Shown piece after piece: positions 5,563-56,920 of a stretch of 64,000 nucleotides of DNA. The stretch is from Chiloscyllium plagiosum. Its lineage: Eukaryota. Under the pieces are notes generated by a model. The model was not told the DNA's origin. It worked only from the letters and a program-made list of their open reading frames with translations, and ran no database searches. Each line of letters begins with the position of its first letter. The stretch's first letter is position 1. The DNA lies in the NCBI RefSeq assembly GCF_004010195.1, contig NC_057757.1, positions 279,794 to 343,793 of the forward strand. The letters run 5' to 3'. The position numbers and the translations under genes are program-made.

Positions 5563-7216
5563 GGTAGTATCGGATGTTGGAGTTAGGCAAATATTGTTCC
5601 TCTGTTCAAGAAAGGGAATAGTGAAATCCCTGGGAATTACAGACCAGTCAGTCTTACATCTGTGATAAGCAAGGTATTGGAAAGGATACTGAGAGATAGG
5701 ATTTACGACTAATTGGAAAAACATAATTTGATTAAAGATAGTCAGCCTGGCTTTGTGAGGGGCAGGTCTTGCCTCACAAGCCTTATTGAGTTCTTTGAGG
5801 ATGTGATGAGACAAGCTGACAAAGGTCGAGTTGTGGATGTGGTGTATATGGATTTCAGTGAGGCATTTGATAAGGTTCCCACGGTAGGCTTATTGAGAAA
5901 GTTGGGAGGTAAGGGATACAGGGGAATGTGGCTGTCTGGATACAGAATTGTCTGGCCGAAAGAAGACAGCGAGTGGTAGTGGATGGAAGATATTCCGCCT
6001 GGAGCTCGGTGACCAGTGGTGTCCCGCAGGGATCTGTTCTTGGGCCTCTGCTCTTTGTAGTTTTTATAAATGACTTGGATGAAGAAGTGGGAGGGTGGGT
6101 TAGTAAGTTTGCCGATGACACAAAGGTCAGTGGGTGTTGGAGATAGTATCGAGGGCTGTTGCAGGCTACAACATGACATTGACAGGATGCAGAGCTGGGC
6201 TGAGAAGTGGCAGATGGAGTTCAACCTGGATAAATCTGAAGTGATTCATTTTGGAAGGTCAAATTTGAATGCTGATTACAGGGTTAAAGACAGGTTTCTT
6301 GGCAGTGTGGCGGAACAGTGGGATCTTGTGGTCGATGTACGTAGATCCTTCAAAGTTGCCACCAGAATTGATAGGGTTGTTAAGAAGGCTTATGGTGTTT
6401 TGGCTTTCATTAACAAGGGGATTGAGTTTAAGAGCCACAAGGTTTTACTGCAGCTCTATAAAACTCTGGTTTGACCACAGTTGGAATATTGTCAAGATTA
6501 GAGTGGTGCTGGAAAAGCACAGCAGGTCAGGCAGCATCCGAGGAGCAGGAAAATTGACGTTTCAGGCAAAAGCCCTTCTCAGGAATCCAATGAAGGGCTT
6601 TTGCCCAAAACATCGATTTTCCTGCTCCTTGGATGCTGCCTGACCTGCTGTACTTTTCCAGCACCGCACTAATCTCCAGCATCTGCAGTCCCACCTCTGC
6701 CTTGGAATATTGTGTCCAGTTCTGGTCGCCTCATTATTGGAAGGATGTAGATGTTTTAGAGAGGGTGCAGAGAAGATTTACCAGGATGCTACCTGGATTG
6801 GAAAGCTTGGCTTATGAAGAGAGATTGAGTGAGCTTGGGCTTTTCACACTGCAGAGAAGAAGGAAGACAGGTGCCTTAATAGAGGTATACAAGGTAATGA
6901 GAGGCATAGATGGATTGGATAGCCAGAGACCTTTCCCCTGGGCAGAAATGGCTGTCACGAGGGGGCAGCATTTTAAGGTGTTTGGAGGAAGGTTTAGGGG
7001 AGATATCAGAGGGAGGTTCTTTACTCAGAGAGTGGGGGGTGTGTGGAATGCACTGCCAGCAGTGGGAGTAGGGTCAGAGACATTGGGAACATTTCAGCGA
7101 CTGCTGGATAAGCACCTGGACGGCAGTAAATTGAGGGGTGTGTAGGTTCGGATGGTCTTAGATTAAGGGAAATACTTTGGGCCGAAGGACCTGGACTGTG
7201 CTGTTCTATGTTCTAT
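5563..7216 (+). mobile_element. CR1 (HER1-like) LINE, 5'-truncated ORF2 RT region to 3' tail
   Basis: [71 protein letters not shown]; frameshifted; (TTCTATG) tail. Confidence 0.95.
6493..6701. mobile_element. Fold-back Penelope-type mini-element (family A) inserted in CR1
   Basis: Inverted arms centred near 6585; exact 12-bp TSD TTGGAATATTGT at 6481-6492 and 6702-6713. Confidence 0.85.
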
Positions 7217-7459
7217 CAGCTTTATAAATGCATAAAGATAAAAAGCTGCACACAGCCGGTCAGCCAATTTCTAACAGCAATAATTACTCAAATTAATTAT
7301 ATTTTCCCTGATGGTGCGATAGAATCTCTTAATTTCTGCATTAAATCTACAAATTTCAAATTCAAATAGTACAAACACAGGCAATTGCTATATGATGCCT
7401 GTCCATCCCGGGTATTTGTGGATTTCGTTGCTTTTTAACCAGAGCCAGCATGTGGTTAA

Positions 7460-8035
7460 GTATGGAGTAAAATTCCCTACACTCTGTTAAACTGAAAGTA
7501 AATCTCTCTCACACTGTCTCCATCATACACTCCCAGGAAGGGTGCAACACGAGGTTAGACACAAAGTAAAGCTGCCTCTATTCTTTTAAAGTGAAAGTCA
7601 AGGTCCCTCTACATTGTCCCCCCTATGAAATACTCCCAGGATAGGGATAGCACAGAGTTAGGTACAGGGTAAAGCTCGCTCTACACTGTCCCCCCATCAA
7701 ACACTCTCAGGGACAGGGACAGCATGGTGTTAGATACAGAGTAAAGCTCCCTCTACACTGTCCCCCCATCAAACCCTCCCAGTACAGTGACAGCACGGGG
7801 TTAGATACAGAGTAAAGCTCCTCTACACTGTCCCTCCATCAAACCCTTCCAGTACAGTGACAGCATGGGGTTAGATACAGAGTAAAGCTCCCTCTACACT
7901 GTCCCCCCATCAAACCCTCCCAGGGACAGGAATAGCACAGGGGTATATACAGAGTAAAGCTCCCTCTACACTGTCCCCCCATCAAACCCTCCCAGAACAG
8001 TGACAGCACAGGGTTAGATACAGAGTAAAGCTCCC
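7460..8035 (+). repeat. ~70-bp minisatellite, ~8 copies
   Basis: Unit GGGACAGGGACAGCACGGGGTTAGATACAGAGTAAAGCTCCCTCTACACTGTCCCCCCATCAAACACTCCCA (TAGATACAGA at 7731, 7802...). Confidence 0.9.
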
Positions 8036-8524
8036 ATCTTCTTTATATCAGGCTTTTTTCTGCTCAGTGATGTCACATCACCTTCTCTATGCCTCCTAAT
8101 GAAGGTGACATTTGAAGATAAAACATCAACTATCTAGGAAGATAAATATTGCTTTGGAAATCAGCAGCATACCTGATGCTGAGTCTGAGCTGCTTGCTGA
8201 GGGAGGTAACGTTTAGCTCTATTTTAATGAACAACGGTTGCTTTAGAAACTGGACCATCTAAGTGATGTGACAGTGAATATTTTAACACTAAATTGAGGC
8301 TTTGAGCGAGGGGGTGGAGAGTTGCCGTGAGCAGGGGGCCGTGTTCTGGAAGGATCAGTCACTCTACAGATGGCTGAGCTGACTGTGTGTGTAAGCTTTA
8401 TATTTAATTAACATTCTCCTTGTATTGGCTCTGGCCAGTGGATGGCAAAGCGCCTTTCAGGCTCTTACCTCTCTTCCTTAGTGCACAGCTCGATCCCAGG
8501 TTCAAATCTGCCTTCTATTGTTTA

Positions 8525-9000
8525 TAGACTCATACAGTCATACAGCACGGAAACAGACCCTTCACCCTAGCTCGTCCATGCCGACCAGATATCCGAACCT
8601 AATCTAGTCCCATTTGCCAGCAGCCAGCCCATATACCTCTAAACCTTTCCGATTCATATACCCATCCAGATGCCTTTTAAATGTTGTAATTGTACCAGCC
8701 TCCATCACTTCCTCTGGCAGCTCATTCCATACACGCACCACCCTCTGAGTAAAAAGGTTGCCCCTTAGGTCCTTTTATATCTTTTCCCTCTCACCCTAAA
8801 TCTATGCCTGTCTGGTTTTGAATTCCCCTTCACTGGGGTAAAGACCTTGGCTATTCACATCTTGTCTGTGCCCCTCGTGATTTTATAAACATCGAGAACG
8901 TCCCCCCTCAGCCTTCAGTGAAGAGAGGTCCAGCCTCTCCTTATAATTCAAATCCTTCAGTGCCGGTAAAACCCTTGTCAATCCTTTTTGCATCCTTTCC
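8525..9000 (-). mobile_element. CR1 3' fragment
   Basis: Reverse complement encodes RVVRVWNELPEEV-type C-terminus and tail. Confidence 0.85.
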
Positions 9001-9223
9001 AGGGTTGTGGATAAATCACCACAAGTTATCTTTAATTCAGCTACTCATTACAAAATCTCTCAATCAAATACTGAAACAACAATTCAGACTTTATTGCACA
9101 GAGCAACCAAATATTAGACTCCTCAAATAAGCAAGCAGGTAACAGCGAACCAACTTAGATGTTACCTGATTAATGGTGAAATCTGGCCAGGACATCAACC
9201 ATGGATGATCTGTCCCTGGAAGT

Positions 9224-9772: not shown

Positions 9773-10402
9773 GTTACAAGTTTACAATTTGCCAGGATTT
9801 GGTCTTTTTGTGGTGTTGATTTTCGAAGTTCTGTTAAGGTGGAGTTCTGGTGTTCGATTCTTATACAGATTTTCCATTCAGTCAATAATCATTATCACCG
9901 TTGATTTTTTTTAAAAATCCTTTCATCCAAATTACTATAGGCATACAGCTGGCCTCCTTATCAAAAGTAATTTGTCTGTTGGTTCTTACCTTTTGGCATT
10001 GACTGTCCTATTGAAGACACAGCTTTGTTGTGATTAACTCCTTCAGTTCTGCTGGGCAATCCCTTATTCTTGTGGCGTAATGGATCCAATCTATCAAGCA
10101 GTTTTGTCTGTGTAGCCTGTACTCCTCGATGTGGCTAGTTCTTTCAATTCGTGTATAAGTTTGTCCTTGTCTTTAATAATTTACTCCAGACACAGTTATT
10201 GCGGATTTCTTTGAGTGTATGACAGGTTATCTTTGTTGATTTATTCAATCCCTGAACAGTTGTTAACGATCTGAAGATTATAATCTCATACCAATTTAAT
10301 AACATCCTTCCTAGAGCAGCACAACTAGAATTGTACACAGTTTTCCAAATGTGGCCTTACCATTGTCTTGCACAGCCTTAACAAGACTTGTTTGTCCTTT
10401 TG

Positions 10403-10498
10403 AGAAAGTGAGGACTGCAGATGCTGGAGATCAGAGTCGGGAGTGTGGTGCTGGAAAAGCACAGCAGGTCAGGCAGCATCCGAGGAGCAGGGGAGTCA
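10403..10498 (-). mobile_element. Penelope-type mini-element (family A), truncated
   Basis: AAAGTGAGGACTGCAGATGCTGG...GGAGCAGGGGAGTC; 14-bp TSD TGTTTG(T/C)CCTTTTG at 10389-10402 and 10499-10512. Confidence 0.8.
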
Positions 10499-10688
10499 TG
10501 TTTGCCCTTTTGTTTTTCTCAAACCTTGGGGAACACAATGTCAGTGGATGTTCTTCAGTAGTCTCTGTGTTTGCGGATGGTTGGGGAGGTGGTGACAGGC
10601 GGGGCAGTAGAAGGCGAAGCAGAAACGATATGTGAGGACTATTGAAACGTCCTGGTGGCTACAACTCCCAAGGGAGCGCAGCTACCAG

Positions 10689-11726: not shown

Positions 11727-11820
11727 AAAGTTAAAAATCACACAACACCAGGGAATAACCGAACAGGCTCCTTCACCAGGTGGTTCATCAGGTACACCCC
11801 AGTCCAACACTGGCATCTCC
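11727..11820. mobile_element. Deleted Penelope-type mini-element (family B)
   Basis: AAGTTAAAAATCACACAACACCAGG...CACCCCAGTCCAACACTGGCATCTCC matches 13180-13388; flanked by AAAGGA(G/A)TTG repeats. Confidence 0.7.
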
Positions 11821-12022
11821 AAAGGAATTGTGATGGAGTGTGCAAGATAATGTCAGCTTCAGGGAAGGTGGGGGTGAGAAAGCTGCTCTCATTTCTTGAT
11901 GTTCAAGGACAAGTGGGTAATATGTGGAAGAGCTATTTTTATGCAGCAAATCGTGGTCCACATTGGGACTAATGACATCAGAAGGAAGGATTGAGGTCCT
12001 AAAGGAACCTCAGGGAGTGTTT

Positions 12023-12700: not shown

Positions 12701-13179
12701 AGTACCTTGGATGGCAATGAAATGCAGGATCTCAAGTGCAGTAATCTCAGGATTGTATAAAGTGCTAGCGGCCATGAGAAACGAGGATCCACCGATTAAA
12801 TAGGTGGCTAGAGAACTGGTGTAGAAGGAAAGGTGTCCGATTTCTTACCAACTGGAACTGGTCCTGGGGCAGATGGGACCAGTACAAGATGGACAAGTGA
12901 CACTTGAATTGGATAGGGACTGATAAGCTCAGAGAGGAGTTTGCTTGTGCTGTTGGGCTGATTTAAGCCAGCTACTTACGGCAATAGGAATCGGGGGTGG
13001 GGGTTTACCCACATTGGAAGGAAGTGAAATTGGCAACAGGAAGTTATGAAAGTGTGTGGGAGACTGGCAGACCTGAGATACAAACCTGAAAGCAGAATTA
13101 TGTCAAAGAAAAGTCAAAGTTCAGGGTGCTCCACACAACATTTACAACTAGGTTGATGTTTGTGTCTTTAAAACAGATA

Positions 13180-13388
13180 AAGTTAAAAATCCCACAACAC
13201 CAGGTTAGAGTCCAACAGGTCTATTTAGAAGGACTAGCTTTCTGAGCATTGCTCCTTCATCAGGTACCTGAAGGAGCAGCGCTCTGAAAGCTAGTGTGCT
13301 TCCAAATAAACCTGTTGGACTCTAACCTGGTGTTGTGGGATTTTTAACTTTGTCCACCCCAGTCCATCACCAGCACCTCCAAACCATT
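13180..13388. mobile_element. Fold-back Penelope-type mini-element (family B)
   Basis: ~85-bp inverted arms centred on GGTACC (13263-13268); AACAGATA repeats at 13172-13179 and 13391-13398. Confidence 0.85.
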
Positions 13389-13402
13389 ACAACAGATAGA
13401 CA

Positions 13403-14900: not shown

Positions 14901-14929
14901 ATTTCAATAAGGGAACATACAAAGCACTG

Positions 14930-15096
14930 GAAAAGCTCAGCAGGTCTGGCAGCATCTGTGAAGAGAAATCAGAGTTAACGTTTTGTGTCGGGTGAGGGTC
15001 AACGTTTTGGATCCGATCCACAAATGCTGCCAGACCTGCTGAGCTTTTCCAGCACTTTTAGTTTTTGTTTCTGATTTACATCATCCACAGTTCTTT
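14930..15096. mobile_element. Fold-back Penelope-type mini-element (family C)
   Basis: GAAAAGCTCAGCAGGTCTGGCAGCAT...ATGCTGCCAGACCTGCTGAGCTTTTC inverted arms; TSD AAAGCACTG at 14921-14929 and 15097-15105. Confidence 0.75.
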
Positions 15097-15657
15097 AAAG
15101 CACTGATTGGCCGAGGTGGATTAGGAAAATACATTGAAAGGTATGACAGTATAAACAATGGACAGTCCTTAAGAACAGCAGCTGTACATGACTTCACAGT
15201 GCAGATACTCAAACAAGGTCAATTGTAGCTAACAAAGAAACAAAGAGGACCAAGAAATTAGTAAGGAAAGGGAGAATAGAACGTAAATATGCTCTAGAAA
15301 AAACTGGACTGTAAAAAAGCTTCTGTGTACAAAAAGGAAACCCAGTGGGGTCAGATGGTGGAGAATCTGTGGGGTAGCATTGAGGAACCGCACGATGATA
15401 AAACCATAGTTGGAGTTATGTACAGGCCTCCAAACAGTAGTCAGGAGCTGGGGCTCAAGATACCTCAGGAGATAGAAAAGGTGTATAGGAAAGGCAAAGT
15501 CACAGTGATCACGGGGAACTTCGATCTGCAGGTGGGCTGGGAACATCAGGTTGGTGGTGCATTGCAAGAAAAGGAATTTGTGGAATGTCTTCCAGACGGC
15601 CTTTTGGAGCAGCTTGTGGTGGAGCCCACGAGGGAACAGGCCATACTGGATTTAGTG

Positions 15658-15765
15658 GGAGAAAGCTTCATTCCTGATGAAGAGCTTATGCCCGAAACGT
15701 CGACTCTCCTGTTCCATGGGATGCTGCCTGACAGGCTGTGCTTTTCCAGCACCACGCTCTCAAAC
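15658..15765 (+). mobile_element. Penelope-type mini-element (family A)
   Basis: Exact 13-bp TSD ACTGGATTTAGTG at 15645-15657 and 15766-15778. Confidence 0.85.
15670..15705 (+). ncRNA. Minimal type I hammerhead ribozyme-like motif
   Basis: ATTC-CTGATGA-A-GAGC-TTAT-GCCC-GAA-ACGT-C-GACT: conserved CUGANGA and GAAA boxes, stem II with one mismatch, palindromic stem III, GUC site. Stem I is weak. Confidence 0.6.
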
Positions 15766-18429
15766 ACTGGATTTAGTGTTGTGCATTGAGGCAGACGTGG
15801 TAAGGGAGCGTCAATGAAGGAACCTTTAAGAGACAGTGATCACAATATGATCGAATTTACTCTGCAGTTTGAGAGGGAGAAGATAGAATCTGAGGTAACA
15901 GTGTTGCAGCTGAATAAAGGCAATGAGAGAAGCACGAGGGAGGAGCTGGGTAGGACTGACTGGGAGAGGATCCGAGCAGGAAAGACAGTGGGACAGCAAT
16001 GGCAGGAGTTTCTGGGAGTAACTCAGGAGACACAGCAGAGATTCATCCCGAGGGAAAAGAAGCGTGGTACAGGGAGGATGAGGCAACCATGGCTGACCAG
16101 GGAAGGCAGGGATAGCATCAAAGCAAAAGAGAAAGCATATAATGTTGGGAAGGGCAGTGGGAAACCGGAGGATTGGGAAGCTTACAAAGACCAATACAGG
16201 ACAACAAAAAAAGAAATAAGGAGGGAGAAGATTAAACGAGGGTACGCCAGCCAGTAATATAATGGAAGACTGTAAGACTTTCTTTGGATATATAAGGGGC
16301 AAAAGTGGCCATTGGGCCGCTGGAAAATGATGCTGGAGAAATAGTAGTGGGGGACAAGGAAATAGCTGAGCAACTGAATAATTACTTGGTGTCTGTCTTC
16401 ACGGTGGAAGACACGAGTAATATCCCAAAAATTCAAGAGAGTGTTGGGGAAGACCTAAGTATGGTGGCCCTTTCCAAGGAGAAGGTACTAGATAAACTGA
16501 ATAGCCTGAAGATGGATAAATTACCTGGACCAAATAGACTGCATCCGGGATTTCGAAGGGAGATAGCTGTTGAGATAGTGGAGGCGTTAGTGGTGATCTT
16601 CAGGAATCACTAGAATCAGGGAGGATCTCAGAGGATTGGAAACTCACTAACATGACACCACTGTTTAAAAAGGGAGTAATACAAAAGATAGAAAATTACA
16701 GATCAATTAACCTAACCTCAGTCGTGGGTAAGATCCTGGAACCCATTGTGAAAGATAAGATTCCTGAATATTTTGGAAGTGTATGGTAGAGTAGGGAAAA
16801 ATCAGCATGGCTTCATCAAGGGGAGGCCATGCCTGACAAATCTGTTCAAGTTCTTTGAGCAAGGTAGGCCAAGGAGAGCCAATGGATGTTACCGACCTGG
16901 ACTTCGGGAAAGCCTTTGACAAGCTGCCGCACAGGAGGTTGCTGAGTAAGATAAGGGCCCCAGGGTGTCAGAGGCAAGGTGCTAGCATGGATTGAAGCTT
17001 GGCTTGTCTAGCAGGAAGCAGAGAGTCGGGATAAAAGGCTCCTTCTCAGGATAGCAGCTGGTGACAAGTGATGTTCCACGAAGGTCAGTGTTGGAACCAC
17101 AACTTTTCACTTTATATATTAATGATCTGGATGAAGGAACTGAGAGCATTCTGGTGAAGTTTGCAGATGATACAAAGATAGGTAGAGGGACAGGTAGCAT
17201 TAAGGAGGCAGGGAGGCTGCAAAAGGATCTGGACAGGTTAGGAAAGTGGGCAAAGAAGTGGCAGATGGAATACAATGTGGGAAATTGTGAGGTCATGTAC
17301 TTTGGTGGGAAGAATAGAGGCATGGACTGTTTTCGAAATGGGGAGAAAATTCAGAAATCTGAAGTGCAAAGAGACTTGGGGAGTCCTAGTCCAGGATTCT
17401 CTCAAGGTAAATCTTGATGCAGTAGTTAGGAAGTCAAATGCAATCATGGCATTTATTTTGAGAGGATTTGAGTATAAAAGCAGGGATGTATTTCTGAGCT
17501 CTATAAGGCTCTGGTCAGACCACATTTGGAGTATTGTGTGCAGTTTTGGGCCCCGTGTCTCAGGAAGAATGTAATGGCCCTGGAGCGTGTTCAGCGGAGA
17601 TTCACGAGAATGGCCCCAGGAATGAAAAGCTTAACATCTGAGGAATGTTTGAGGATTCTAGGTCTATATTTGATGGAGTTTAGAAGGATGAGTGGGGGAT
17701 CTAATTGAAACATACAGAATACTGAATAGCCTGGACAGAGTAGATGTTGGAAAGATATTTCCATCGGTAGAAGAGATAGGACCCGAGGGCATAGCCTTAG
17801 AGTAAAGGGAAGTCCTTTTAGAATGGAGATAAAGAGAAACGTCTTCAGCCAGAGAGTGGGGAATCGATGGAATTCACTGCCACAGCAGGCTGTGGAGGCC
17901 AGTCGCTGAGTATATTTAAGACGGAGATAGATAGGGTCTTGAGTATCAAGGGGATTAAGGGTTATGGGGAGAAAGGGAGAGAATGTGATTGAGAAACTCA
18001 TCAGCCATGATTCAGTGGCAGAGCAGACTCGATGGGCTGAATGGCCATCCGATGTCTTATGGTAAACATTTGGCTGAAATGAATGCCGGTCTATCCCGGG
18101 CAGATTCAGAGGAATTTATAAAAGGGAATAGAGAAATGGCAGGAAGTTAAATGATTACAATATGTCTATTTTCATTGAGGAAGATACCAGAAATCTCTCA
18201 GGTCCAAAGATCCATGTGGCTGAGGAGAATGAAGAGTTGAAGGAAATGAGTATTGTTCAAAGGATTGTAATGGAAATTAATGGGGCCAAAATCCCTGGGA
18301 GTTGGCATGTGTACATTCCAGAGTGTTGAAGGATGGGATAAGTAGACACCTTGTAGATAGTGATCTGAATGGGCAGATTCAACATGAGTTTGCAAATGGG
18401 AATCCACGTTTGACAAACTTATGGAGTTA

Positions 18430-19915: not shown

Positions 19916-20441
19916 AAGAAGATTGGAGTCCTGGAGGAATCACGTCTTGCTTCGATGATACAGGAGATGGATTTGACCCCAGCTGGAGGGTCACTGTTTA
20001 GTTCTGGTATCCTTCTCTCTTTCAAGAGAGAGAAATTATTGCCACCGTCGGGGGGGTGGGCGCATGGAAGGTTCCCCAGCCCTGTTCCCAGGATGGTGGG
20101 ACTGTCCTGTGGAGAGAGATCGGACAAGCTGATCCAGTGTTCCCTCTACTTTCACAGCATGAGGGGTGATCCCATCAAAACGGACAAAATAATTAAATGG
20201 CATGGACAGAGGAGGTCCAGGTCAGCTGTTTCTCCAGGTGGACATTTCTGGACCAGGGAATACCCCCTTCAAACCCCAAGGGATGTCCCTGAGCTCCGTG
20301 ATCAGGAGAGATCATTCTCCCCCGAGAATGTCGAAGCTGTGAGGGCTCAGGCTTCGTGTCTATCTAAGGCAGAGATTTCTGATGCCCATTGGCGGCCAGG
20401 GTCGTGGAGGTGGGATGGGGAAAAGGCATTGAATTGTTCAG

Positions 20442-20568
20442 GCGAAAGTGAGTACACAGATGATGGAGATTAGAGTCAAGATTAGAGTGGTGCTGGGAAA
20501 GCACAGCAGGTCAGGCAGCATCCGAGGAGCAGGAAAATCAACGTTTCGAGCAAAAGCCCTTCATGAGT
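20442..20568 (-). mobile_element. Penelope-type mini-element (family A)
   Basis: Exact 14-bp TSD ATTGAATTGTTCAG at 20428-20441 and 20569-20582. Confidence 0.85.
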
Positions 20569-21950
20569 ATTGAATTGTTCAGTCAGCCACGATCATATCG
20601 AGTGGCAGGGAAGGCTTAATGGGCTGAATGGCCTACCGGCATGGACAGGTTGGACCAAAGGGTCTGTTTCCATGCTGTACATCTCTATGACTCTATGCTG
20701 TTCCTATTCTCCAAGTGATAATGAACAGGAACTTGCTGCCTGTGAGGGTAGTGGAATTGGATGCAGACTTGATTTGTATAGGAAATTGGATTGACACACT
20801 TTTAAAGGAAAAAAAAACAACTTGCAGAATATTGAGAGAATGGGGGATGGGACTGACTGGAGTGGTATATGCAGGGCTGGCCTGGATTCCACAGGCTGAG
20901 TGGCCTCCTTCTGTTCTATCGTGACTCTGTAACTCGAATGACAATCTTGTTCCCACTCACACGCCCACCTCGCAAAATAAAATGAGCAAATGACTGAAAA
21001 AGCTATTTCTGTAAAAGGTCCTGACTCAGCCTTGATCCTGCAACCTATGGAAAGACCTGGTGTGTGGAGAGATTACACAGTGACTGAGGGAGGGGGATGT
21101 GTGTAAACTGGGCTGTGTTAAGTTGGGGTGGGGTGGGGTTGCAGAGTCAGTGATGATGGAGTGTACATGATACTGTGCAGGAGAAATTGATAGATGGACT
21201 TAACTCACTAGATGGTGTCCCCATGGTTCTTATAAACGCTCTGTACCTAACTGCTGAGATGAATGATTTTGGCACATCTCATCCTGACATGTAGCAGGGT
21301 CCTATAACTGTGCCACCATCTGTTGTGACAGACCTGCATTGACTCGAGTCTCGCCTTTCGTGCTGCTCCTCTCATTGTAAGGTTCTTGTTTGTATGGCTT
21401 CTCTCTGGCAGCATCTCGAGACAGAGACAGAGAGAGTCCCGTTGAACTGGTCCCACCCCCGCCGTCCTGTAATTGCCGAATTGTTGCCAGTCCATTTGAG
21501 GCTGAATCAATCTGGCTGGTCAGCCTGCCGCACGAGCAGTTGTGGTGAGTTGTGAGAGCAGCCACTCTACCTGGGATCTAACCCAAACTGGGAGAGTCTG
21601 GGAATCACCTCAGTGAAGACTTCAATAATTATGAGAGAGAGAGAGAGCTGAAAACGAGGTGACTCTTGAACATCAATGTTTCATTCAACACTTCATCTGA
21701 GGGTCAAGATATTACCTGGGAGAGTGTCATGGTCAGACCTTTGTTCTGGATTGATAACATTACTCTAATGACCAGGGAGCACACAGTTGTGTTTCCAGGC
21801 ATTAAATGGGAAGCTTGCGCCCGTGAGAGGCTACAATCTTCAGATCTAAGCTGTTAATAGTCTACCTCTTTCCCTAACCCCCTGGCATGTGGGAGATATC
21901 TTGTGACAATCCTGCAGATCGGTGGTTAAGAGCTATTTAAGGGCAAGTTC

Positions 21951-25339: not shown

Positions 25340-25818
25340 CAGTTTGAGCTCAGCAAGATCCCACAAGAGGCAATGTTACCATGACTAAAAGATCTATTTT
25401 GATTGATGTCAATTCAAGGGTTAAACATTATCCTGGATTCCAGAGAGGGACCCCAACTGTAATGGTGGCCACGGGATCGTTCATGTTGACCTGGGGACTT
25501 TGCATTTGCCCAAAATGTCGATTTTCCTGCTCCTCGGATGCTGCCTGACCGGCTGTGCTTTTCCAGCTCCACTCTAATCTAGACTCTGATTTCCATCATC
25601 TGCAGTCCTCACATTTGCCCAGCTCACTTTGGCAGGACATCAGTTTAATGAAAAATGGCCTCTGCGGCAGTGCGGCACTCCTTCAGCACTGACCCTCCGA
25701 CAGTGCAGCACTCCCTCAGCACTGACCCTCTGACAGTGCAACTTCCTCAGCACTGACCCTCCGACAGTGCAAAGATTCCTCAATTCCACATTGAGCTTTG
25801 GCCGTGGATTTTGTGACC
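25340..25818 (-). mobile_element. Deu-domain SINE with a nascent ~4-unit array and a nested family A element (~25500-25620)
   Basis: CAGCAAGATCCCACA body; units at 25665-25785; GATGCTGCCTGACCGGCTGTGCTTTTCCAGC insert. Confidence 0.75.
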
Positions 25819-29744: not shown

Positions 29745-30508
29745 NNNNNNNNNNNNNNNNNNNNNNNNNNNNNNNNNNNNNNNNNNNNNNNNNNNNNNNN
29801 NNNNNNNNNNNNNNNNNNNNNNNNNNNNNNNNNNNNNNNNNNNNNNNNNNNNNNNNNNNNNNNNNNNNNNNNNNNNNNNNNNNNNNNNNNNNNNNNNNNN
29901 NNNNNNNNNNNNNNNNNNNNNNNNNNNNNNNNNNNNNNNNNNNNNNNNNNNNNNNNNNNNNNNNNNNNNNNNNNNNNNNNNNNNNNNNNNNNNNNNNNNN
30001 NNNNNNNNNNNNNNNNNNNNNNNNNNNNNNNNNNNNNNNNNNNNNNNNNNNNNNNNNNNNNNNNNNNNNNNNNNNNNNNNNNNNNNNNNNNNNNNNNNNN
30101 NNNNNNNNNNNNNNNNNNNNNNNNNNNNNNNNNNNNNNNNNNNNNNNNNNNNNNNNNNNNNNNNNNNNNNNNNNNNNNNNNNNNNNNNNNNNNNNNNNNN
30201 NNNNNNNNNNNNNNNNNNNNNNNNNNNNNNNNNNNNNNNNNNNNNNNNNNNNNNNNNNNNNNNNNNNNNNNNNNNNNNNNNNNNNNNNNNNNNNNNNNNN
30301 NNNNNNNNNNNNNNNNNNNNNNNNNNNNNNNNNNNNNNNNNNNNNNNNNNNNNNNNNNNNNNNNNNNNNNNNNNNNNNNNNNNNNNNNNNNNNNNNNNNN
30401 NNNNNNNNNNNNNNNNNNNNNNNNNNNNNNNNNNNNNNNNNNNNNNNNNNNNNNNNNNNNNNNNNNNNNNNNNNNNNNNNNNNNNNNNNNNNNNNNNNNN
30501 NNNNNNNN

Positions 30509-31912
30509 CTCCCTCAGCACTGACCCTCTGACAGTGCCTGCTCCCTCAGCATTGACCCTCCAACAGTGCGGCACTCCCTCAGCACTGACCCTCTGACAGT
30601 GCCTGCTCCCTCAGCATTGACCCTCCAACAGTGCGGCACTCCCTCAGCACTGACCCTCTGACAGTGCCTGCTCCCTCAGCATTGACCCTCCGACAGTGCG
30701 GCGCTCTCTCAGCACTGATCCTCGACAGTGCAGCACTCCCTCAGCACTGACCCTCCGACAGTGCAGCACTCCCTCAGCACTGACCCTCTGACAGTGCCTG
30801 CTCCCTCAGCACTGACCCTCTGACAGTGCCCGCTCCCCCAGCACTGACCTTCCGACAGTGCCCACTCCCTCAGCACTGACCCTCCAGCAGTACTGCACTC
30901 CCTCAGCACTGACCCTCTGACAGTGCCTGCTCCCTCAGCGCTGACCCTCCGATAATGCAGCACTCCCTCAGCACTGACCCTCTGACAGTGCGGCGCTCCC
31001 TCAGCACTGACCCTCTGACAGTGCCTGCTCCCTCAGCACTGACCCTCCGACAGTTCCCACTCCCTCAGCACTGACCCTCTGACAGTGCCCACTCCATCAG
31101 CACCGACCCTCCAAAAGTGTGCAGCACCCTCAGCACTGACCCTCCGACAGTGCCCACTCCGTCAGCATGAACCCTCCAGCAGTGCCCAATCCCTCAGCAT
31201 CGAGCCTCTGACAGTGCCTGCTCCCTCAGCATTGACCCTCTGACAGTGCGGCACTCCCTCAGCACTGACCCTCTGACAGTGCCCGCTCCCTCAGCACTGA
31301 TCCTCTGACAGTGCCCGCTGCCTCAGCACTGATCCTCCAACAGTGCCCACTCCCTCAGCACTGACCCTCCGACAGCACAGCACTCCCTCAGCACTGACCC
31401 TCCGACAGTGCGGCGCTCCCTCAGCACTGACCCTCCGACTGTGCAGCACTTCCTCAGCACTGACCCTATGACAGTGCCCGCTCTCTCAGCACTGATCCTC
31501 CAATAGTGCCCACTCCTTCAGCACTGACCCTCCAGCAGTGCCCAATCCTTCAGCATCGAGCCTCCGACAGTGCCTGCTCCCTCAGCATTGACTCTCCGAC
31601 TGTGCGGCACTCCCTGAGCACTGACCCTCGACAGTGCAGCACTCCCTCAGCACTGACCCTCCGACAGTGCCTGCTCCCTCAGCACTGACCCTCCGACAGT
31701 GCCTGCTCCCTCAGCACTGACCCTCCAACAGTGCGGCGCTCCCTCAGCACTGACCCTCCGACAGTGCCTGCTCCCTCAGCACTGACCCTCGACAGTGCAG
31801 CACTCCCTCAGCACCGACCCTCCGACAATGCCTGCTCCCTCAGCACTCCCTCTCCGACAGTGCCCACTCCCTCAGCACCGACCCTCTGACAGTGTGGCAC
31901 TCCCTCAGCGCT
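30509..31912 (-). repeat. 32/33-bp minisatellite, >=43 copies (C-rich strand on +)
   Basis: Unit CACTCCCTCAGCACTGACCCTCCGACAGTGC(GG/C). Confidence 0.95.
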
Positions 31913-32780
31913 GGGTTAAAATCCTGCCCCTCCCTCCATAACGGCCTTGTGTGAATCCCTACTCTGTGCGCTGCAGTGGTTGAAGGAGGCTGCTCACCAT
32001 CACTTTTTCACACGTGGTGAGCGGTGGGTGGAAAGGCTAGACCCCTCAGTGGTGCCCACATCGTGTGAAAGAAGTTTTAAGAAAGTTTCCCATGTGACAA
32101 AGCTGCAGTAAGACCCACATGCTCCCTCATTGACAAAGCGTGATGTTGAAATAACTCAGAGGTGTGCAGATATCCCTGAGAATTGTGTTAAGAATGTTCT
32201 AGATTTCAAATCTCACCTCTCCCCCCCCCCAGCCGGGCCCAACACAGCCCTCTGCCAGTCCACCCCAGAATAACACCCTTTCTCCCTCACTGTTGACTCC
32301 ATTCAGTTTTGTGGATTTAAACATTTCTGCCTGCCTCCTGGGCAGTCCGATTGCAGTGCTTTCTATTTATATTTTCCGTTTATTCCAGGGCATTATTTTG
32401 CTGTTTATTTGCATTTGGGTGAGATGCTATTTAGCAATATTTAGCCAACAGGCTGATGTGACAGAGGAACACATTGCTGCAGCTGTTTGCGGTCCAGGCT
32501 GTGTTCACCCTGGATTGCTTCTGGTTTTCCTCCGTGTTCCAGCTCGGAGCACAGTGAGACTATCTCCATCCAGTGTCCAAGAGTGGAACTGCTGCGCAGC
32601 AGAGCAGGTGGATCTCAGGAATTGTCCTGACTGCTTGATCTAATTTGTATTTTCAAGAGGGTTAATCTGCTACTATTGAACGCCTGCTCCGTTCACTGGG
32701 AACTACCATGATCTCTGAGTCACAAAGTTCAAATACCACATCCGAGCCCAGTGATTCGATCGGCATAGTTTAAATTCTCA

Positions 32781-33653
32781 GTGTCGGAGGGTCAGAGCTG
32801 AGGGTGCACCACACTATCGGAGGGTCAGTACTGAGGGAGGGGGCACTGTCGGAGGGTCAGTGCTGAGGGAGTGCCGCACTGTCGGAAGGGCAGTGCTGAG
32901 GGAGCGAGCACTGTCGGAGGGTCAGTGTTGAGGGAGCGGGCACTGTCGGAGGGTCAGTGTTGAGGGAGCGGGCACTGTCAGAGGGTCAGTGCTGAGGGAG
33001 CGGGCACTCACTGTCGGAGGGTCAGTGTTGAGGGAGCGGGCACTGTCAGAGGGTCAGTGCTGAGGGAGCGGGCACTGTCGGAGAATCAGTGTTGAGGGAG
33101 CGGGCACTGTCAGAGGGTCGGTGCTGAGGGAGCGGGCACTGTTGGAGAATCAGTGTTGAGGGAGTGGGCACTGTCAGAGGGTCAGTGCTGAGGGAGCGGG
33201 CACTGTCGGAAAATCAGTGTTGAGGGAGTGCCACACTGTCGGAGGGTCAGTGTTGAGGGAGCGGGCACTGTCAGAGGGTCAGTGCTGAGGGAGTGCCGCA
33301 CTGTCGGAGGGTCAGTGTTGAGGGAGTGGGCATGGTCAGAGGGTCAGTGCTGAGGGAGCGGGCACTGTTGAGAGCCAGTGTTGAGGGAGCGCCGCTCTGT
33401 CAGAGAGTCAGTGCTGAGAGAGTGGGCACTGTCAGACAGTCAGTGCTGAGGGAGTGGGCACTGTTGGAGGGTCAGCGCCGAGGGAGTGGGCACTGTCGGA
33501 GAGTCAGTGCTGAGGGAGTGGGCAATGTCAGAGGGTCAGCGCTGAGGGAGTGGGCACTGTCAGAGTGTCAGTGCTGAGGGGGTGCCGCGCAGTTGGAGGG
33601 TCAGTGCTGAGGGAGTGGGCACTGTCAGAGGGTCAGTGCTGAGGGAGTGGGCA
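32781..33653 (+). repeat. 32/33-bp minisatellite, >=27 copies (G-rich strand on +)
   Basis: Unit GCACTGTCGGAGGGTCAGTGCTGAGGGAGTG(G/CC); decayed SINE head at ~32710-32780. Confidence 0.95.
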
Positions 33654-34153
33654 NNNNNNNNNNNNNNNNNNNNNNNNNNNNNNNNNNNNNNNNNNNNNNN
33701 NNNNNNNNNNNNNNNNNNNNNNNNNNNNNNNNNNNNNNNNNNNNNNNNNNNNNNNNNNNNNNNNNNNNNNNNNNNNNNNNNNNNNNNNNNNNNNNNNNNN
33801 NNNNNNNNNNNNNNNNNNNNNNNNNNNNNNNNNNNNNNNNNNNNNNNNNNNNNNNNNNNNNNNNNNNNNNNNNNNNNNNNNNNNNNNNNNNNNNNNNNNN
33901 NNNNNNNNNNNNNNNNNNNNNNNNNNNNNNNNNNNNNNNNNNNNNNNNNNNNNNNNNNNNNNNNNNNNNNNNNNNNNNNNNNNNNNNNNNNNNNNNNNNN
34001 NNNNNNNNNNNNNNNNNNNNNNNNNNNNNNNNNNNNNNNNNNNNNNNNNNNNNNNNNNNNNNNNNNNNNNNNNNNNNNNNNNNNNNNNNNNNNNNNNNNN
34101 NNNNNNNNNNNNNNNNNNNNNNNNNNNNNNNNNNNNNNNNNNNNNNNNNNNNN

Positions 34154-34710
34154 CTCCTTCCAGCTGGAGGACTGTATCCAGATCTGTGCACTTCACTCTA
34201 GGAAGCCACCGGGAGAGAGCAGACAGGAGATTCGCCAGAGAGCTCAGCTGCACGGTTAGGATTGAGGAAGCAGGGACTGTTGGAGGAGAGAAAACTGAGA
34301 AGAGATCTGACCGAGATGTTCAGAATCATGAAGGGTGTGGACCCTAGCACTGGATGAGACTAGTCAACTTGGGGGAAAAGTTGCAAATCAGAGCACTCCA
34401 GTTGAAGGTTAGAGACAAAAAATAATTGCAGATGCTGGAATCCAAAGTTGACAAACAAGAGGCTGGAAGAACACAGCAAGCTAGGCAGCATCAGAAGGTG
34501 CAGAAGGCAACACTTTGGGTATTAACCCTTCTTAAGGACAATTGACAAACGCACTACGCAAGGGTGAGGCAGGAACTGTGGCTTCAGAAGGGGAATTGGA
34601 TTCTAGCGAATAGACTTGAAGGGACAGGGATAAAGGCGGGGGAAGTGGGACCAGCTGACTCATTCTTGTACAGAGACAGAGGTGAGCCTAAGGCAGTCTC
34701 ATTCTATTCT
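34154..34710 (+). mobile_element. Highly decayed CR1 3' fragment with Penelope-type insert (~34418-34540)
   Basis: QLEDCIQIC, KLKRDLTEMFRIMKG; TGCAGATGCTGGAA...AACCCTTCTT insert. Confidence 0.6.
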
Positions 34711-35317: not shown

Positions 35318-35808
35318 GAGGACACAGCTCAGTCCATCACAGTCCACCTCCCATCCACTGACTCCATCTACACTTCTCACTGTCTCAGGAAAGCAGCCCT
35401 CCCATCCCAGTTAGAACCTCTTCCAACCTCTTCTGTCAGGCTTTTGCCCGAAACGTTGATTTTCCTGCTCCTCAGATGCTGCCTGACCTGCTGTGCTTTT
35501 CCAGCACCACTCTAACCTAAACTCTGGTTTCCAGCATCTGCAGTCCTCACTTCTGCCGAGAATATACAGAAGCTTAAACACATGCACCAATAGGTTCAAG
35601 AACAGCTTCCCTCCCGCTGTTACTAGATTCCGGAATGGACATTTCAAATTCCAAATTTAATGTTGATCTGGCTCTCTGTGCACCTTCTCTTGTATTCCTC
35701 ACTCTGTTCTATAACCACATTGTATAGTCTGATCTGCCTGTACTGAACACGAAACAAAACTTTTCACTGTATCTTGGTACACATGACAATAATAAAACAA
35801 ATCAAACT
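35318..35808 (+). mobile_element. Rex/Babar-like 3' fragment with nested family A element (35438-35558)
   Basis: AQSIT.HLPSTDSIYTSHCLRKAA, TNRFKNSFP, AATAAAACAAATCAA tail. Confidence 0.75.
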
Positions 35809-36915: not shown

Positions 36916-38780
36916 CTCTCCAATATAACAAACTGGAACCTTGCAATGGTCAGGAACCCAACCAAGGTCAATAGTTTGGAAGGCAGCTCTGCTTATCATT
37001 AGACCACCATCGCTCGGAACTTGGACAGAGGATGGTTGCTTTCATTGTCCAAACAGCTGCATCTCGGGGAGCCCCTGGGAATCAACTGCTCAAATTCCTG
37101 ACTCGGAATGACTGTGGATTTGAGCCCCCACTCCTGATCACGCAACCTCAGGGGATACTGTGAGTGCCAGGACTGAAGGAGCACTGCATGGTCAGGGTAC
37201 ATCAAGCTCAGGTCTGTGCACCCTCCCCTCCAGGCAGGTGTTAAAGGAATCCACAGCCACTACTTGGAAGAGGGGCAGGGATTTTCACCGATCCTCATTA
37301 CTGATATTCATCCACCAGCCAACGAGGAAGTGGATGGTACGCAGTGCAAGATTACATTTGTGGGATCTTGCTGTGCCTGACTGGGCACTTGAGTCCCCCG
37401 CATCACACTAGGGACTACTCGATAACAAAACATTTCAGGAGGCTTTGAGCAGTGTGGAGCAAAACACACACCCGAAACGTAGATTCTCCTGCCCCTCGGA
37501 TGCTGCCTGACCGGCTGTGCTCTCCCAGCCAGGAGCAAGCTGTTCGCTTCTAATTGGTGCTTGTCATGCCAACAGAGAACAAACTGCACAAGGAACACAC
37601 AAAGCCACACGCACATCTGCAACCTACTCCCTTACCCTCACTCCCACATGCCCGACCAGGCAGGCAGTCTGAAGTCTTGCTTCCCAATGGAACCTAATCG
37701 GGTGTCAACTAGAAACAAAACCAAACAGCCATTCGTCCCCAATGCTGACCCACCTAGATTTATCTCCGGGCAACTGATTGGGGGGGGGGGCAAAAGTCCA
37801 GGAGAGAAATCAGAGAGAGGGTATCAAACAAACCTATGTGGTTACTTCATCTCAATGTTACATTTTCCTTCCATAATAACAAAACCATTGGAGGCAGGAG
37901 GCTGGTTCACACACACAAGAGCCCAAATGGGTAATGTGTTTCTCTGTGGAGTTGTGTCGGGTGTGGAACAGAAGAAGGCCATTCAGCCCAGCTGGTCCAT
38001 TCCACTATTCAACGAGATCATGGCTGAATTGATAGTCCCCAACATTTTCCTTCCCCATAATCCTTGCTTCCCTTTCCAATTGAAAACTTGTTTACCTCAG
38101 CCTTGAATATACTTCATGACCCAGTCCTCTGCAGTTGAGAATTCCACTGATTCACCACTGTCAGAAAAGAAATTCCTCCTTGTCTTTGTCTACAATGGGT
38201 GACTCCTGCCCCCGCACCCCGCCCCCCCCCACAAAGCTGCGAGATGATGCCTTGATCCCAGACCCTCCCTATGGCGAGGGGGTGAAAACCTCTGCACAGT
38301 CTCATAAGGGCATGAGAGATGCTGAGACTGTTGTCCTCAGAGAGGAGAGGATTGAGGGGAGATAGAGACGTGCAAGATCACGAGGGGTCGGCACGGAGTC
38401 AACAAGGAGAAATTGTTTCCCTTGGGAAACGTTTCAGGAATCAGACGGAATTGATTCAAGGTAATTAGCAAAACGACCAACAGCAACATGAGAGAAAAAA
38501 AAGTTTCTTCATGTGAGCGATTCAGGTGTGGAACACCCAGCCTGAGTGTGGTAGAGGCAGGTTCACTGATGACTTTCAAAAAGCAATAGATAACCACGTG
38601 AAGAGACAAGTTTGCAGAGGGTTACAGAGAAAAGGCAGGCAAGTGAGATTTGGAGAGGTACACTTACAAAGAGCCGGTACAGACACATCAGGCCAAATGG
38701 CCTCCTTCTACGTAGCAACTACTTGATGATCGTGAGGCCTTCTCCCATCCCTGTAATCCTATCCTCCTCTCACAGTTAAA

Positions 38781-39285
38781 CTGTAGCTCAGTAGATCCGA
38801 GGAGCAGGAGAGCCGACGTTTCGAGCAAAAGCCCTTCATCAGGAAACCTCCAGCACCACAGTCTCGACTCTGATCTCCAGCAGCTGCAGTCCTCACTTTC
38901 TGCTGTAGCTCAGTAGGTGGCACTTTGAAAGCTCTGAAGCATTAGGTTTTGGGTCTACGACAGGACTAAAGCCATCGAATCAGGTACTGATGGGCTGTTG
39001 CATGAGGAGAGGCATTTTCCTAAATTGAGGCATTAACCAGAGATTCCCATCGGCCTGCTCTCAGATCTAAAACATTCCATCACATTATTCCAAAGAGTCC
39101 ATGTCTTGACCAACGAGCATCCCTCAATCAACATCCCTCAATCAAAACAGATGACAGTGAGAGCTTGCTGTGCACTAATTGGCAGCCGCGTCCTCTACAT
39201 TACAACGGAACTCCACCTCAAAGGAAGTCCTTCACTGACTGTAAAACAATGCAAAGCCCTAATAAATGCAGGTGCTTTTGTTTCT
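38781..39285 (+). mobile_element. Decayed Deu-domain SINE, single seed unit
   Basis: GTAGCTCAGTAGG head, GGTACTGATGGG seed, AGCTTGCTGTGCAC-AATTGGCAGCCGCG-TACATTACAAC, ATAAATGCA tail. Confidence 0.7.
38795..38902. mobile_element. Family A mini-element with internal inversion and intact hammerhead core on minus strand (38812-38845)
   Basis: Exact 14-bp TSD CTGTAGCTCAGTAG at 38781-38794 and 38903-38916; minus strand CTGATGA-A-GGGC-TTTT-GCTC-GAA-ACGT-C. Confidence 0.85.
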
Positions 39286-52437: not shown

Positions 52438-53223
52438 CATAGAATCCCTACCGTGTGGAAGAAAGCCATTTGGCCCATCAAGTCCACACCAACCCTCTAA
52501 AAAGCAACTCGCCCAGATCCTCCACCACCTCCCCCCCCCACCCCAACCTCCCCTTTACCCATAACCCTGCATATCCCATGGCCAATCTGCCCTAACCTAC
52601 ACATCCCTGGACACTATGAGACAATTTCCCATGGCCAATCCACCGTAAACTGCACATCCCTGGACACTATGGGACAATTTCCCATGGCCAATCCACCAAA
52701 ACCTGCACATTCCTGAGCACTATGGAACAATTTCCCATGGTCAATCCACCCTAACCTGCACATCCCTGGCCACTATGGGACAATTTCCCTTGGCCAATCC
52801 ACCCCAAACTGCACATCCTTGGACACTATGGAACAATTTCCCATGGCCAATCCACCCTAACCTGCACATCCCTGGACACTATGGGACAATTTCCCATGGC
52901 CAATCCACCTGAACCTGCACATCCCTGGACACTATGGGACAATTTCCCATGGCCAATCCACCCGATCCTGCACATCCCTGGACACTATGGGACAATTTCC
53001 CATGGCCAACCCACCCTAACCTGCACATCCCTGGGCACTATGGGACAATTTCCCATGGCCAACCCACCCTAAACCGCACACCTTTAGACTATGGGAGGAA
53101 ACCGGAGCACCCAGAGGGAGCCCATGCAGATACTGGGAGAATGTGCAAACTCCATATTGACAGTCACCTGAGTCTGGAATTGAACCCAGGTCCCTGGCGC
53201 TGTGAGGCAGCAGTGCTAACCAA
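52438..53223 (-). mobile_element. HE1-like SINE with ~10 x 53-bp units
   Basis: Tail at 52438, array 52575-53080, tRNA head 53170-53223. Confidence 0.9.
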
Positions 53224-53310
53224 TCAAAAGCAATAAGGAAGCATGATTTGCTAATCTATAACTCTACAATTGAAACCTTACTCTTTTGTAAAATGTAGCC
53301 ATACACAATC

Positions 53311-53958: not shown

Positions 53959-55823
53959 CAAAGAAACACGCAAAGAAACAAGACAAGACACCAATATAAT
54001 TGGTGTGGAAGGCAGGAGAGGAGGAGATGGATGGAACAAAATATGTCAGAGGAGCACACTGCTGGCACCAGTCCAGATGACAGACCATGAGGAGATGTTT
54101 CACATCAGTTCCTTTTGATGCTTTTGACTCTTTAAGGAGGACACAATGTTGTGGAGACTTTGATTCTCAGTCTTTCATCCACTAGTTAAGGATTTGCCCT
54201 TTCATTGTCTTTGAGGTGTCTTTTTTTGCTTCTTTTCCAACTGATGGTGGGGATGGGGTGGGGGGGGAGCTTAGAGAGAGTCTTGTACATGAAAATGGTG
54301 AGTAAGAGAACTCCCAAGGCAGTTTCTCTGCACTGGAGGAAGAGACACACACTTAGATGCTTTCTCTTTCTTGGGCCATGTTTCTGTCTAATCGTAACTG
54401 TAGCCACACACCCAGGATCCAATCAAGACATTGTTACTATGCTGACCACTCCTCAACACATACACACACTGGTCCCAGTGGAAAACCCAGGAACAGACTG
54501 TCTGGGTAAAATGGTCCTGAACACATACCCACATAGCCAGCATTTCCACTATCCACCTAGATACACACACACACACCCACACCCACTGACAACACACTCA
54601 CCCACACACCCCTACCCACACACAAACAGCCACACTCCATCCCCCTTCCCCCTCACCCCCTACACACACCTTGAATAAGGAAACATTCCACGTACAACTC
54701 AATGAGTTCTAGCAACATCCTCCTCCAGTTTCCTTGGTTCAAAGGAAATTATCCCAATTTTTCATCCACAATTCCAAGAAATTAAAGTGGCCTTTTCAGT
54801 CAGAACTTCTGTACATTTTCTCCAGTTCAGACGGCCCACTGACAGAGGTTCCCATGAGTTGATGGGATGCTTGGATTTTCTCAGAGAGGCATTCAGGACC
54901 TCCTCAAAGCCTCCCTGGTAATTGCTACCCCTTACAAAGCCTGGAGGAGTTGCCCTTGTTTTTGAAGATGAGAGCCAGGCCTGCAGACAATGTGGCTTTC
55001 CCAGTCAAGCTCCCTGACTGCAACCAAGAACTCAACGCTGAGGATGTAGGCCAGCGAGACTGGGGCACTTAGCCGGCCACAGGATTTGCAAAGTTTTGCA
55101 GGGGTGTCTGTCAATTAGAAGTCTCCTTGAAACGGGGGCAGGCATTGTCGATGAAATTCAACATCGCCTCCAGCTTGCCAGCACAATGTCTGGCCATCTA
55201 AATAACAGTGTGTTTGATGATGAAGGACTCAAAATTAACGCCACGTTCAGGGGCCGCAGTTTCATCAGGTCTTCTGTCTGCACAGGTGACCTGGTTTTCT
55301 CAAATTTCTGGAGAAATGTCACCAGGCCAAAATGCTGCAAATCTTCTGGCAGGGTCACTCCCAATGCTAGGGAGGGAATCCCAGGATTCTGACCCAGCCA
55401 CATTGAAGGAACGGCGATATATTTCCAAGTTGGGATGGTGAGGGGCTCGGAGGGGAACTTGCAGGGGGTGGTGTTCCCATGTATCTGCTGCCCCTTGTCC
55501 TTCTAGAGGGAAGCAGTCATGGGTTTGGAAGGAGCTATCTGAGGAATGTCAGTGAATTTCCGCAGTGCATCTTGTGGATGGTGCACACTTCCGCTACTGA
55601 GCACAGAGAAGTGAATGTTGAAGGAGAGGGAAGAGAAAAATATGTGAAAGGTGGAAAGAGAAGCACAGGTTCCTGTGTGCTGTGAGAATAATTGTAGCCA
55701 TATGCTCAGTCAGCTGAATGAATCACTTTGCTCTGAATGCAGTTACACAGCAATGGGTTAAACAGGCGAAGTGCTCAAATGTTCTGGCTCCAGCATTCCT
55801 CAGCTCTGTATCCCATTCCCATC

Positions 55824-55994
55824 AGGAGAAAGTGAGGACTGCAGATGCTGGAGATCAGAGTCGAGAGTGTGGTGCTGGAAAAGCATGGTGGTCAGGCAGC
55901 ATTCTGATGAAGGGCTTTTGTCCGAAACATCGATTCTCCTGCTCCTCGGATGCTGCCTGACCTGCTGTGCTTTTCCAGCCCCACACTCTCGACC
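55824..55994. mobile_element. Fold-back family A mini-element, ~120 nt downstream of a DLG4 splice donor
   Basis: Inverted arms; CTGATGA 55904-55910, GGGC-TTTT-GTCC, GAAACATC; TCCCATTCC flank repeats. Confidence 0.85.
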
Positions 55995-56116
55995 CCGTCC
56001 CCATTCCTTACTTTGAAACAGCCAGAACTCCATCAACTGTAAAACCAACAACCACAGGTCCCGAGAACCAACACGTCAGAGCCCTCAACCAAAGGATGAG
56101 GGCAGCAGGTGCCTAC

Positions 56117-56190
56117 CTTGAGAGGACATTTCTTGGGGTAGCATGGCACTGGCTGATTGTCCAGCGACACCTCATAGAACTGCTGAATAT
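56117..56190 (-). CDS. DLG4: DLG4/PSD-95 beta-isoform exon, end of L27 domain (74 nt, phase 1-0)
   Basis: TTTTTCAAACAG|ATATTCAG...CTCAAG|GTAGGC; translates (D)IQQFYEVSLDNQPVPCYPKKCPLK. Continues FQALL-DIQ(E/Q)FYEV as in DLG1/2/4, and its phase joins the 63686 exon in frame. Confidence 0.9.
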
Positions 56191-56279
56191 CTGTTTGAAA
56201 AAGACACAAGGTTTTAGTGTCACAAAGACACAAAGGTGCAAAGGCCATTTTAAAACAAAATGTGTTAGCCTACTGCTGC

Positions 56280-56920
56280 AGGAAGGATATTATTAAATTG
56301 GAGAGGGTTCAGAAAGGATTTGCCAAGATGTTGCCAGCAATGGAGGTTTGGAGTTATAAGGGGAGGCTGGATAAGGCTGTGAGTTTTTTCACCAGAGTGT
56401 AGGAGGTTGAAGCATGACCTTATAGAGGTCTATAAAATCATAGGGTATCGATAAGGTGAATACAGCAGGGGTCTTTTCCCTGGAGTGGGGGAGCTCAAAG
56501 ATCAGGGACATAATTTTAAAGTGAGAGGAGGAAGCTTTAAAAAGGACTTGAGGGATAACTTTTTCTACAGAGAGTGGTTCGTGTATGGAATGAATTGTCA
56601 GAGGATGTGGGTACAGTTACAATGTTCAAAAGACATTTGGATAAGTACATGAATAGGAAAGGTTTTGAGGGATATGGGCAAAAGTGAGGACTGCAGATGC
56701 TGGAAACCAGAGTTTAGATTAGAGTGGTGCTGGAAAACCACAGCAGGTCAGGCAGCATCCGGGGAGCAGGAAAATCGACGTTTCGGGCAAAAGCCCTTCA
56801 TCCTTCGAGGGATATGGGCCAAGTGCAGGCAGGTGGACTAGTTTAGTTTGGGAACATGTTCGGTTCAGACTGATTGGGCCAAAGGGTCTGTTACTGTACT
56901 GTAGGACTCTGTGACTCTAT
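56280..56920 (+). mobile_element. CR1 3' fragment with nested family A element (56680-56803)
   Basis: RKDIIKLERVQKGF; TSD GAGGGATATGGGC at 56667-56679 and 56807-56819. Confidence 0.9.

Follow-up and report, generated by a model that had tools for sequence, protein, structure and literature searches.

Short fold-back insertions with hammerhead motifs in a shark genome as probable truncated ends of a Penelope-like retrotransposon

Do short, non-coding insertions that carry a ribozyme motif form a mobile element of their own, or are they pieces of a larger one? The question is raised by a stretch of 64,000 nucleotides from the shark Chiloscyllium plagiosum (NCBI RefSeq assembly GCF_004010195.1, contig NC_057757.1, positions 279,794 to 343,793 of the forward strand), referred to below as the window. 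A preliminary description, made from the sequence alone, had noted about ten copies of one family (family A) here, many flanked by target-site duplications (TSDs) and several palindromic, and had read them as a distinct non-autonomous, ribozyme-bearing derivative of a Penelope-like element (PLE). All ten copies are present, and the Penelope-like origin is borne out by the same terminus on copies with reverse transcriptase (RT) and GIY-YIG endonuclease (EN). The idea of a distinct element has to be given up: the end sits on these longer copies, insertion lengths are continuous and the inversion junctions differ between copies. Hence the copies are very probably truncated PLE ends, each made anew.

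The parent element and the anatomy of its insertions

Walking upstream in the genome from the motif, we found the end of about 130 nt (the head) to be continuous with an EN and RT frame at four loci (L042, L043, L053 and L057), and with 560 open codons at a fifth (L062). Upstream of the motif lies a C-rich stretch, followed by a frame with DKG, YIDD, the linker CHRRNCKTC and a GIY-YIG-type YIGET; the same end also stands ahead of the start of the open reading frame (ORF). The linker, of the form CX4CxxC, reads CHRRNCKTC in L042, L053 and L057, and a CX2-5CxxC linker before the endonuclease belongs to the Neptune and Nematis clades (PMC8557442). Among 411 protein homologues the best are from carpet sharks, and many carry Pfam labels for RT (PF00078) and some for GIY-YIG (PF01541). 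Judged by these frames, the parent is an endonuclease-bearing PLE (RT, then a C-terminal GIY-YIG) with a Neptune/Nematis-type linker.

The anatomy of the insertions was taken from 70 TSD-bounded events. Visual inspection removed 14 of these, which were ambiguous or duplicates, and left 56; at score 3.5 the TSD search made 9 false calls in 120, and a threshold of 4 was used. We number the end from +1, the A of ATTCC; positions marked 'core' count from the hammerhead core. Insertion lengths run continuously from 71 to 2922 bp, with 47 of the 56 at 233 bp or shorter. There are two fixed 3' ends, a short one at +91-94 and a long one at +128-132, and their pairing is strict: 33 events join an inverted short end to a long end, and none joins long with long or short with short. 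The rest comprise 6 events with a shortened inverted arm, 16 solo heads (10 long, 6 short) and 1 unclassified. In rough alignments the junctions are distinct in 31 of the 33 two-armed insertions, so with lengths this variable the copies share no fixed structure of the kind expected from masters of their own. The apparent TSD length is 13-17 in 54 of 56 events, inflated by the one mismatch allowed and by overlap with the element, and TSD starts show no preference for ATT. The layout of an inverted pseudo-long terminal repeat (pLTR) plus tail is already published for PLEs (PMC8557442, PMC3846280).

Four TSD-bounded events, L127 (314 bp), L129 (636 bp), L135 (454 bp) and L137 (310 bp), have non-element DNA ahead of the head; either flanks were carried along or the TSD calls may have arisen by chance. 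At L246:2114-2356 stands a head-to-tail pair of heads with private changes in common; the second head begins at +1.

In 139 systematic 10-kb stretches we counted 203 loci in 1.32 Mb without N, or 154 per Mb (175 per Mb under tighter clustering in the first 100 stretches). Extrapolated from chromosome-scale contigs to the genome of 3.56 Gb, this gives roughly half a million loci, a figure that counts homology matches, with about 39% of motif-spanning arms intact. Two young family-A lineages have copies 98-100% identical on different contigs (L101, L113, L139, L154, L089; L146/L156; L095/L111). One of the two has a full stem I and AATAAA inside the head. A young subfamily also has copies reaching the coding region (L080/L108).

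The copies in the window and their hammerhead motif

A fuzzy motif scan together with a BLAST search of the window against itself recovered the following copies of family A and one of a second hammerhead-bearing end family (family B):

6493..6701, two-armed insertion, inverted short arm (start +1) and long arm (start +8), within a long interspersed nuclear element (LINE) frame; TSD 6481-6492 / 6702-6713, 12 bp
10403..10498, minus strand, solo long head, start near +26, core lost; TSD 10389-10402 / 10499-10512, 14 bp with 1 mismatch
13180..13386, family B, two-armed; TSD 13168-13179 / 13387-13398, 12 bp with 1 mismatch
15658..15765, plus strand, short head, start near -7, core bases kept, stem II mismatch, within a LINE frame; TSD 15645-15657 / 15766-15778, 13 bp
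20442..20568, minus strand, solo long head, start +5, core mutated; TSD 20428-20441 / 20569-20582, 14 bp
25502..25619, plus strand, solo long head, start about +15; 10-bp repeat overlapping the element, TSD ambiguous
35439..35557, plus strand, solo long head, start +14; 6-bp repeat, no clear TSD
37471..37529, plus strand, fragment +21 to +80; flanking repeat of 7 bp only
38795..38902, two-armed insertion, inverted arm +2 to about +52 joined to +75..+128; TSD 38781-38794 / 38903-38916, 14 bp
55820..55999, two-armed insertion, inverted long arm (+51..) and short arm (start -1, stem III mutated); flanking repeat 55812-55819 / 56000-56007, 8 bp
56680..56806, minus strand, solo long head, start +7, first core bases lost; TSD 56667-56679 / 56807-56819, 13 bp

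The picture of many clean TSDs of 12-14 bp is right for six of the ten family-A loci, five exact (12 bp at 6493, 13 at 15658, 14 at 20442, 14 at 38795 and 13 at 56680) and one with a single mismatch; the other four (near 25500, 35438, near 37470 and 55824) have only flanking repeats of 6-10 bp. Three loci (6493, 38795, 55824) are inverted, and 11 of the 13 window arms start between -7 and +26. Two copies (6493, 15658) interrupt LINE reading frames, for which the RVT_1 match reached only E 0.09. The copies had also been called the youngest layer of the window, on the ground that they interrupt repeats labelled CR1, Rex and SINE. This holds only partly: the window copies are matched by other loci at 90-96%, subfamilies of younger age exist elsewhere, and 98-99% identical pairs of other repeats sit beside the 98-100% pairs of the young family-A subfamilies.

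Older, diverged relatives of the same end lie at 14927-15055 (two-armed) and 34427-34538. The window also holds a 632-nt inverted-repeat call at 30003-34153, largely N gaps, beside minisatellite arrays of 32-33 nt; further arrays of 53 nt and 71 nt at about 1930-2970, 52465-53195 and 61100-61813; and, on the minus strand at 57856-59216, broken RT-like frames of another LINE-type element.

By its sequence, the NUH triplet included, the motif in these ends is a minimal type I hammerhead of the kind published for PLEs (PMC4209133). The exact motif first quoted for the window copies occurs there 0 times, as it is a consensus, and a single window arm (38819-38842, minus strand, inside 38795..38902) passes a minimal-hammerhead descriptor. 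An Rfam search at gathering score gave no match. The descriptor found 63 matches in 1.01 Mb (window plus sample) versus 0 in shuffled DNA; one of the 63 is unrelated and the others belong to family A or B. Across eight subfamilies or families, the majority sequences all keep CUGANGA and GAAA, together with the extra A and the palindromic stem III, which upholds the reading of a core with palindromic stem III. N7 and loop II vary, and the stems change on both sides between families (stem II GGGC/GCCC, GGGT/ACCC or GGAGC/GCTCC; stem III ACGT versus AGCT). Of 139 motif-spanning arms, 54 keep the core and stem II along with 2 bp of stem I, CpG decay being the main cause of motif loss. Stem I had been described as poorly formed. 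This is true of the window's subfamilies and of the TTTT subfamily, where it has 2 bp, a mismatch and 1 bp against the 4-5 bp expected of the minimal type, and family B has 3 bp; a complete stem of 4 bp is found only in the young CTGT subfamily with its 98-100% identical copies. There the hammerhead is also the minimum-energy fold, whereas in the TTTT subfamily another fold wins (-11.4 versus -5.3 kcal/mol). All stem pair counts were taken from anchored motifs, since MAFFT set the gap between families wrongly when ten hammerheads were aligned.

Where the copies begin and how they may be made

We scored the 5' ends of 236 arms from the systematic samples against a panel of arms carrying upstream sequence. 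They pile up sharply: 101 of the 160 arms at risk stop within core -8 to +4, or 4.86% per nt versus 0.42 and 0.36% per nt further upstream, and the mode at core -4/-3 was repeated in a held-out set of 60 arms. Break points had been said to cluster at or within the core. They do cluster at the motif, but where the ribozyme begins, 3-4 nt ahead of the core, and not at the cut site, where the region core +27 to +32 holds 13 of 216 ends (1.0% per nt versus 0.9% per nt adjacent). Two candidates were rejected: break points at the cleavage site, whose small excess is not significant and is confounded by CpG decay, and unseen subfamilies as the cause of the peak, with C-rich upstream DNA in only 1 of the 101 peak arms. 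Most copies begin just ahead of the motif likely because the copied RNA starts there, and +1 is thus the likely start of transcription. Of 96 arms that carry upstream sequence, 64 have the motif TTTAT at core -37 to -35, some 33 nt ahead of +1. In RNA run X21 the same boundary appears as loose read ends, 204 at +1 and 341, 812 and 182 at the two 3' ends, and heads are far better covered than the ORF; the reads are probably from copies inside host transcripts. Of another run, X22, 0 reads mapped.

Family B, at about 42 loci per Mb (55 in 1.32 Mb), carries TATAAA at core -40/-38, and its 5' ends are shifted upstream relative to family A. The median 5' end is -8 in B versus -4 in A with top-hit loci included (Fisher p 2e-6), and -6.5 versus -4 in the systematic samples (Fisher p 0.026). 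Its end has the order TATAAA, hammerhead, A(A/T)TAAA, poly(A) 12-13 nt on, and a GT-rich tract (window 13180-13386; L082:4760-5100). Addition of poly(A) is documented by 483 + 665 reads from X21, most of them from a single strand. Linkage of family B to an ORF was not found.

From the linkage of the end to the RT frame, the two fixed 3' ends, the TSDs, the pile-up at +1 and the pairing of long with short, all of which are observed, we propose the following chain. Transcription from the pLTR would start at +1, a predicted position 4 nt ahead of the hammerhead core. The element's endonuclease would make a staggered cut of about 12-15 bp, and each cut strand would prime one cDNA, one from each internal site (long and short). 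Reverse transcription would run off the 5' end of the RNA at +1 for its first head, and variable truncation would replace run-off at a downstream head. One cDNA alone would leave a solo head; two, joined at their ends, often via overlaps of 1-6 nt or a few extra bases, would give a fold-back. The ribozyme would be a passenger in these copies, most of which may have been copied from RNA uncut at the ribozyme. Published work offers precedents: PAc has two RT start sites, both strands are cut and extended, and ribozyme cleavage is dispensable in vitro (PMC11167929), and promoters have been reported in the Penelope pLTR (PMC2377424) and promoter elements in Adineta pLTRs (PMC3846280). To the whole chain of internal priming at two sites, run-off at +1 and joining of cDNAs we give a probability of roughly 0.6.

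Several observations speak against this chain. A Pfam scan of the L062 frame gave no family at E 0.001 or 1, and no gap-free frame of 400 codons was found at the four long-frame places examined in search of an intact full-length ORF; two long 'open frames' proved to be assembly gaps. TTTAT does not qualify as a canonical TATA box, stem I too has its 5' edge at +1, and 45 of the 236 arms extend more than 30 nt upstream of the core, therefore longer templates exist. The shift between A and B is weak once the data are free of selection bias (Mann-Whitney p 0.074; p 0.17 and 0.25 in the held-out set by itself), and the family B TATA count (19/22) is partly circular because the panel was chosen for a TATA-like motif. 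RNA run X21 shows no places where molecules begin or end, and both strands are represented among its reads.

The position of +1 could also be explained if the copies are truncated PLE ends but the pile-up reflects a structural or protein-bound stop at a folded or dimerised hammerhead or at an upstream 5-bp hairpin, or else cleavage at ATT by the endonuclease that the element encodes. The overlap of +1 with the 5' strand of stem I fits such a stop, several subfamilies have a GAGGC/GCCTC-type hairpin whose end lies at about -2, and the PAc endonuclease prefers ATT beside the ORF-pLTR junction (PMC11167929). However, RT reaches the hammerhead from its 3' side, yet it stops fewest times there and most frequently after having copied it; family B ends further from the core and lacks ATT at its main sites, and the indifference of TSD starts to ATT argues against the endonuclease. 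We regard a stop of this kind as rather unlikely. The fold-backs, for their part, might come from snap-back of a single cDNA, or from self-priming on an antisense template as proposed for Adineta PLEs (PMC3846280), instead of from two primed cDNAs. Palindromic junctions would suit this, for example +1/+1 joins that overlap by 2 nt, but they make up 2 of 33; the six solo short-end copies with a TSD of their own imply that the short site can start an insertion alone, and some arms lack any overlap (38795; L123, L152), so that snap-back appears improbable.

Least credible is the earlier proposal of a non-autonomous mini-element or retrozyme, transcribed, self-cleaving and spreading from its own masters. 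The predominance of insertions of 233 bp or shorter, the RNA coverage of heads and the descent of animal retrozymes from PLE pLTRs (bioRxiv 10.64898/2026.07.22.740005) might favor it. But junctions differ between copies, a young subfamily also has copies that reach into coding sequence, copies are dispersed and not in tandem arrays, their ends do not start at the cut site and solo heads lack the upstream TATA-like motif; we consider it largely refuted and very improbable.

The shark PLE ends may resemble a retroviral R region, a view to which we give about even odds. RNA would start just where the hammerhead begins, about 32 nt after a TATA-like box, family B would be polyadenylated just behind the ribozyme, run-off would yield 'strong-stop'-like cDNAs, and a dimeric RT would prime both cut strands from two tail sites and join the cDNAs. 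In that case the roughly half a million insertions would preserve, as a natural archive, how PLEs prime, run off and form second strands.

Comparison with known systems

This is not a new mobile element, and its kind is already known. A literature search that covered mainly open-access text, and neither Repbase nor Dfam, brought up no description of this shark family or of a 5' pile-up at a start site. The copies offer a large and regular data set on how PLEs prime, finish and form inverted ends, and on the role of the hammerhead. The sharp 5' edge and the strict pairing of long with short yield exact predictions for cap analysis of gene expression (CAGE) and for an in vitro PLE assay, and the young subfamily with full stem I is a sensible candidate for a cleavage test.

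With published PLE hammerheads the motif shares the type I core, the extra base between 9 and 10.1, G10.1-C11.1, the palindromic 15.2-16.2 and a short helix I, and in both cases most motifs are single and dispersed, from truncated PLEs, with some opposite-strand pairs. Helix II has 4 bp here versus 7-8 bp in Schistosoma, and copy number is far higher (half a million homology matches, against 4,000-9,000 published descriptor matches); break points appear not to have been mapped in that work. Like other endonuclease-bearing PLEs (PMC8557442, PMC3846280), the shark family shows heavy 5' truncation, an inverted 5' copy, a one-sided tail of 30-40 bp, a TSD and the CX2-5CxxC linker; it differs in that most insertions consist of the pLTR head only, and in TSDs of 12-14 bp (window) versus 8-10 bp in Adineta. 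The PAc element (Poseidon, Anolis; PMC11167929) likewise has two internal RT start sites that define the tail, both strands cut and extended, and dispensable cleavage. PAc belongs to another clade, its ORF starts inside the ribozyme, and the available part of that report describes no run-off or fold-back product. Non-LTR retrozymes (bioRxiv 10.64898/2026.07.22.740005) share the type I hammerhead and the origin from a PLE pLTR. They are, however, defined as head-to-tail tandem repeats, an arrangement that in the window and sampled copies is limited to the one pair at L246, whereas the shark copies are dispersed, TSD-flanked and joined head to head.

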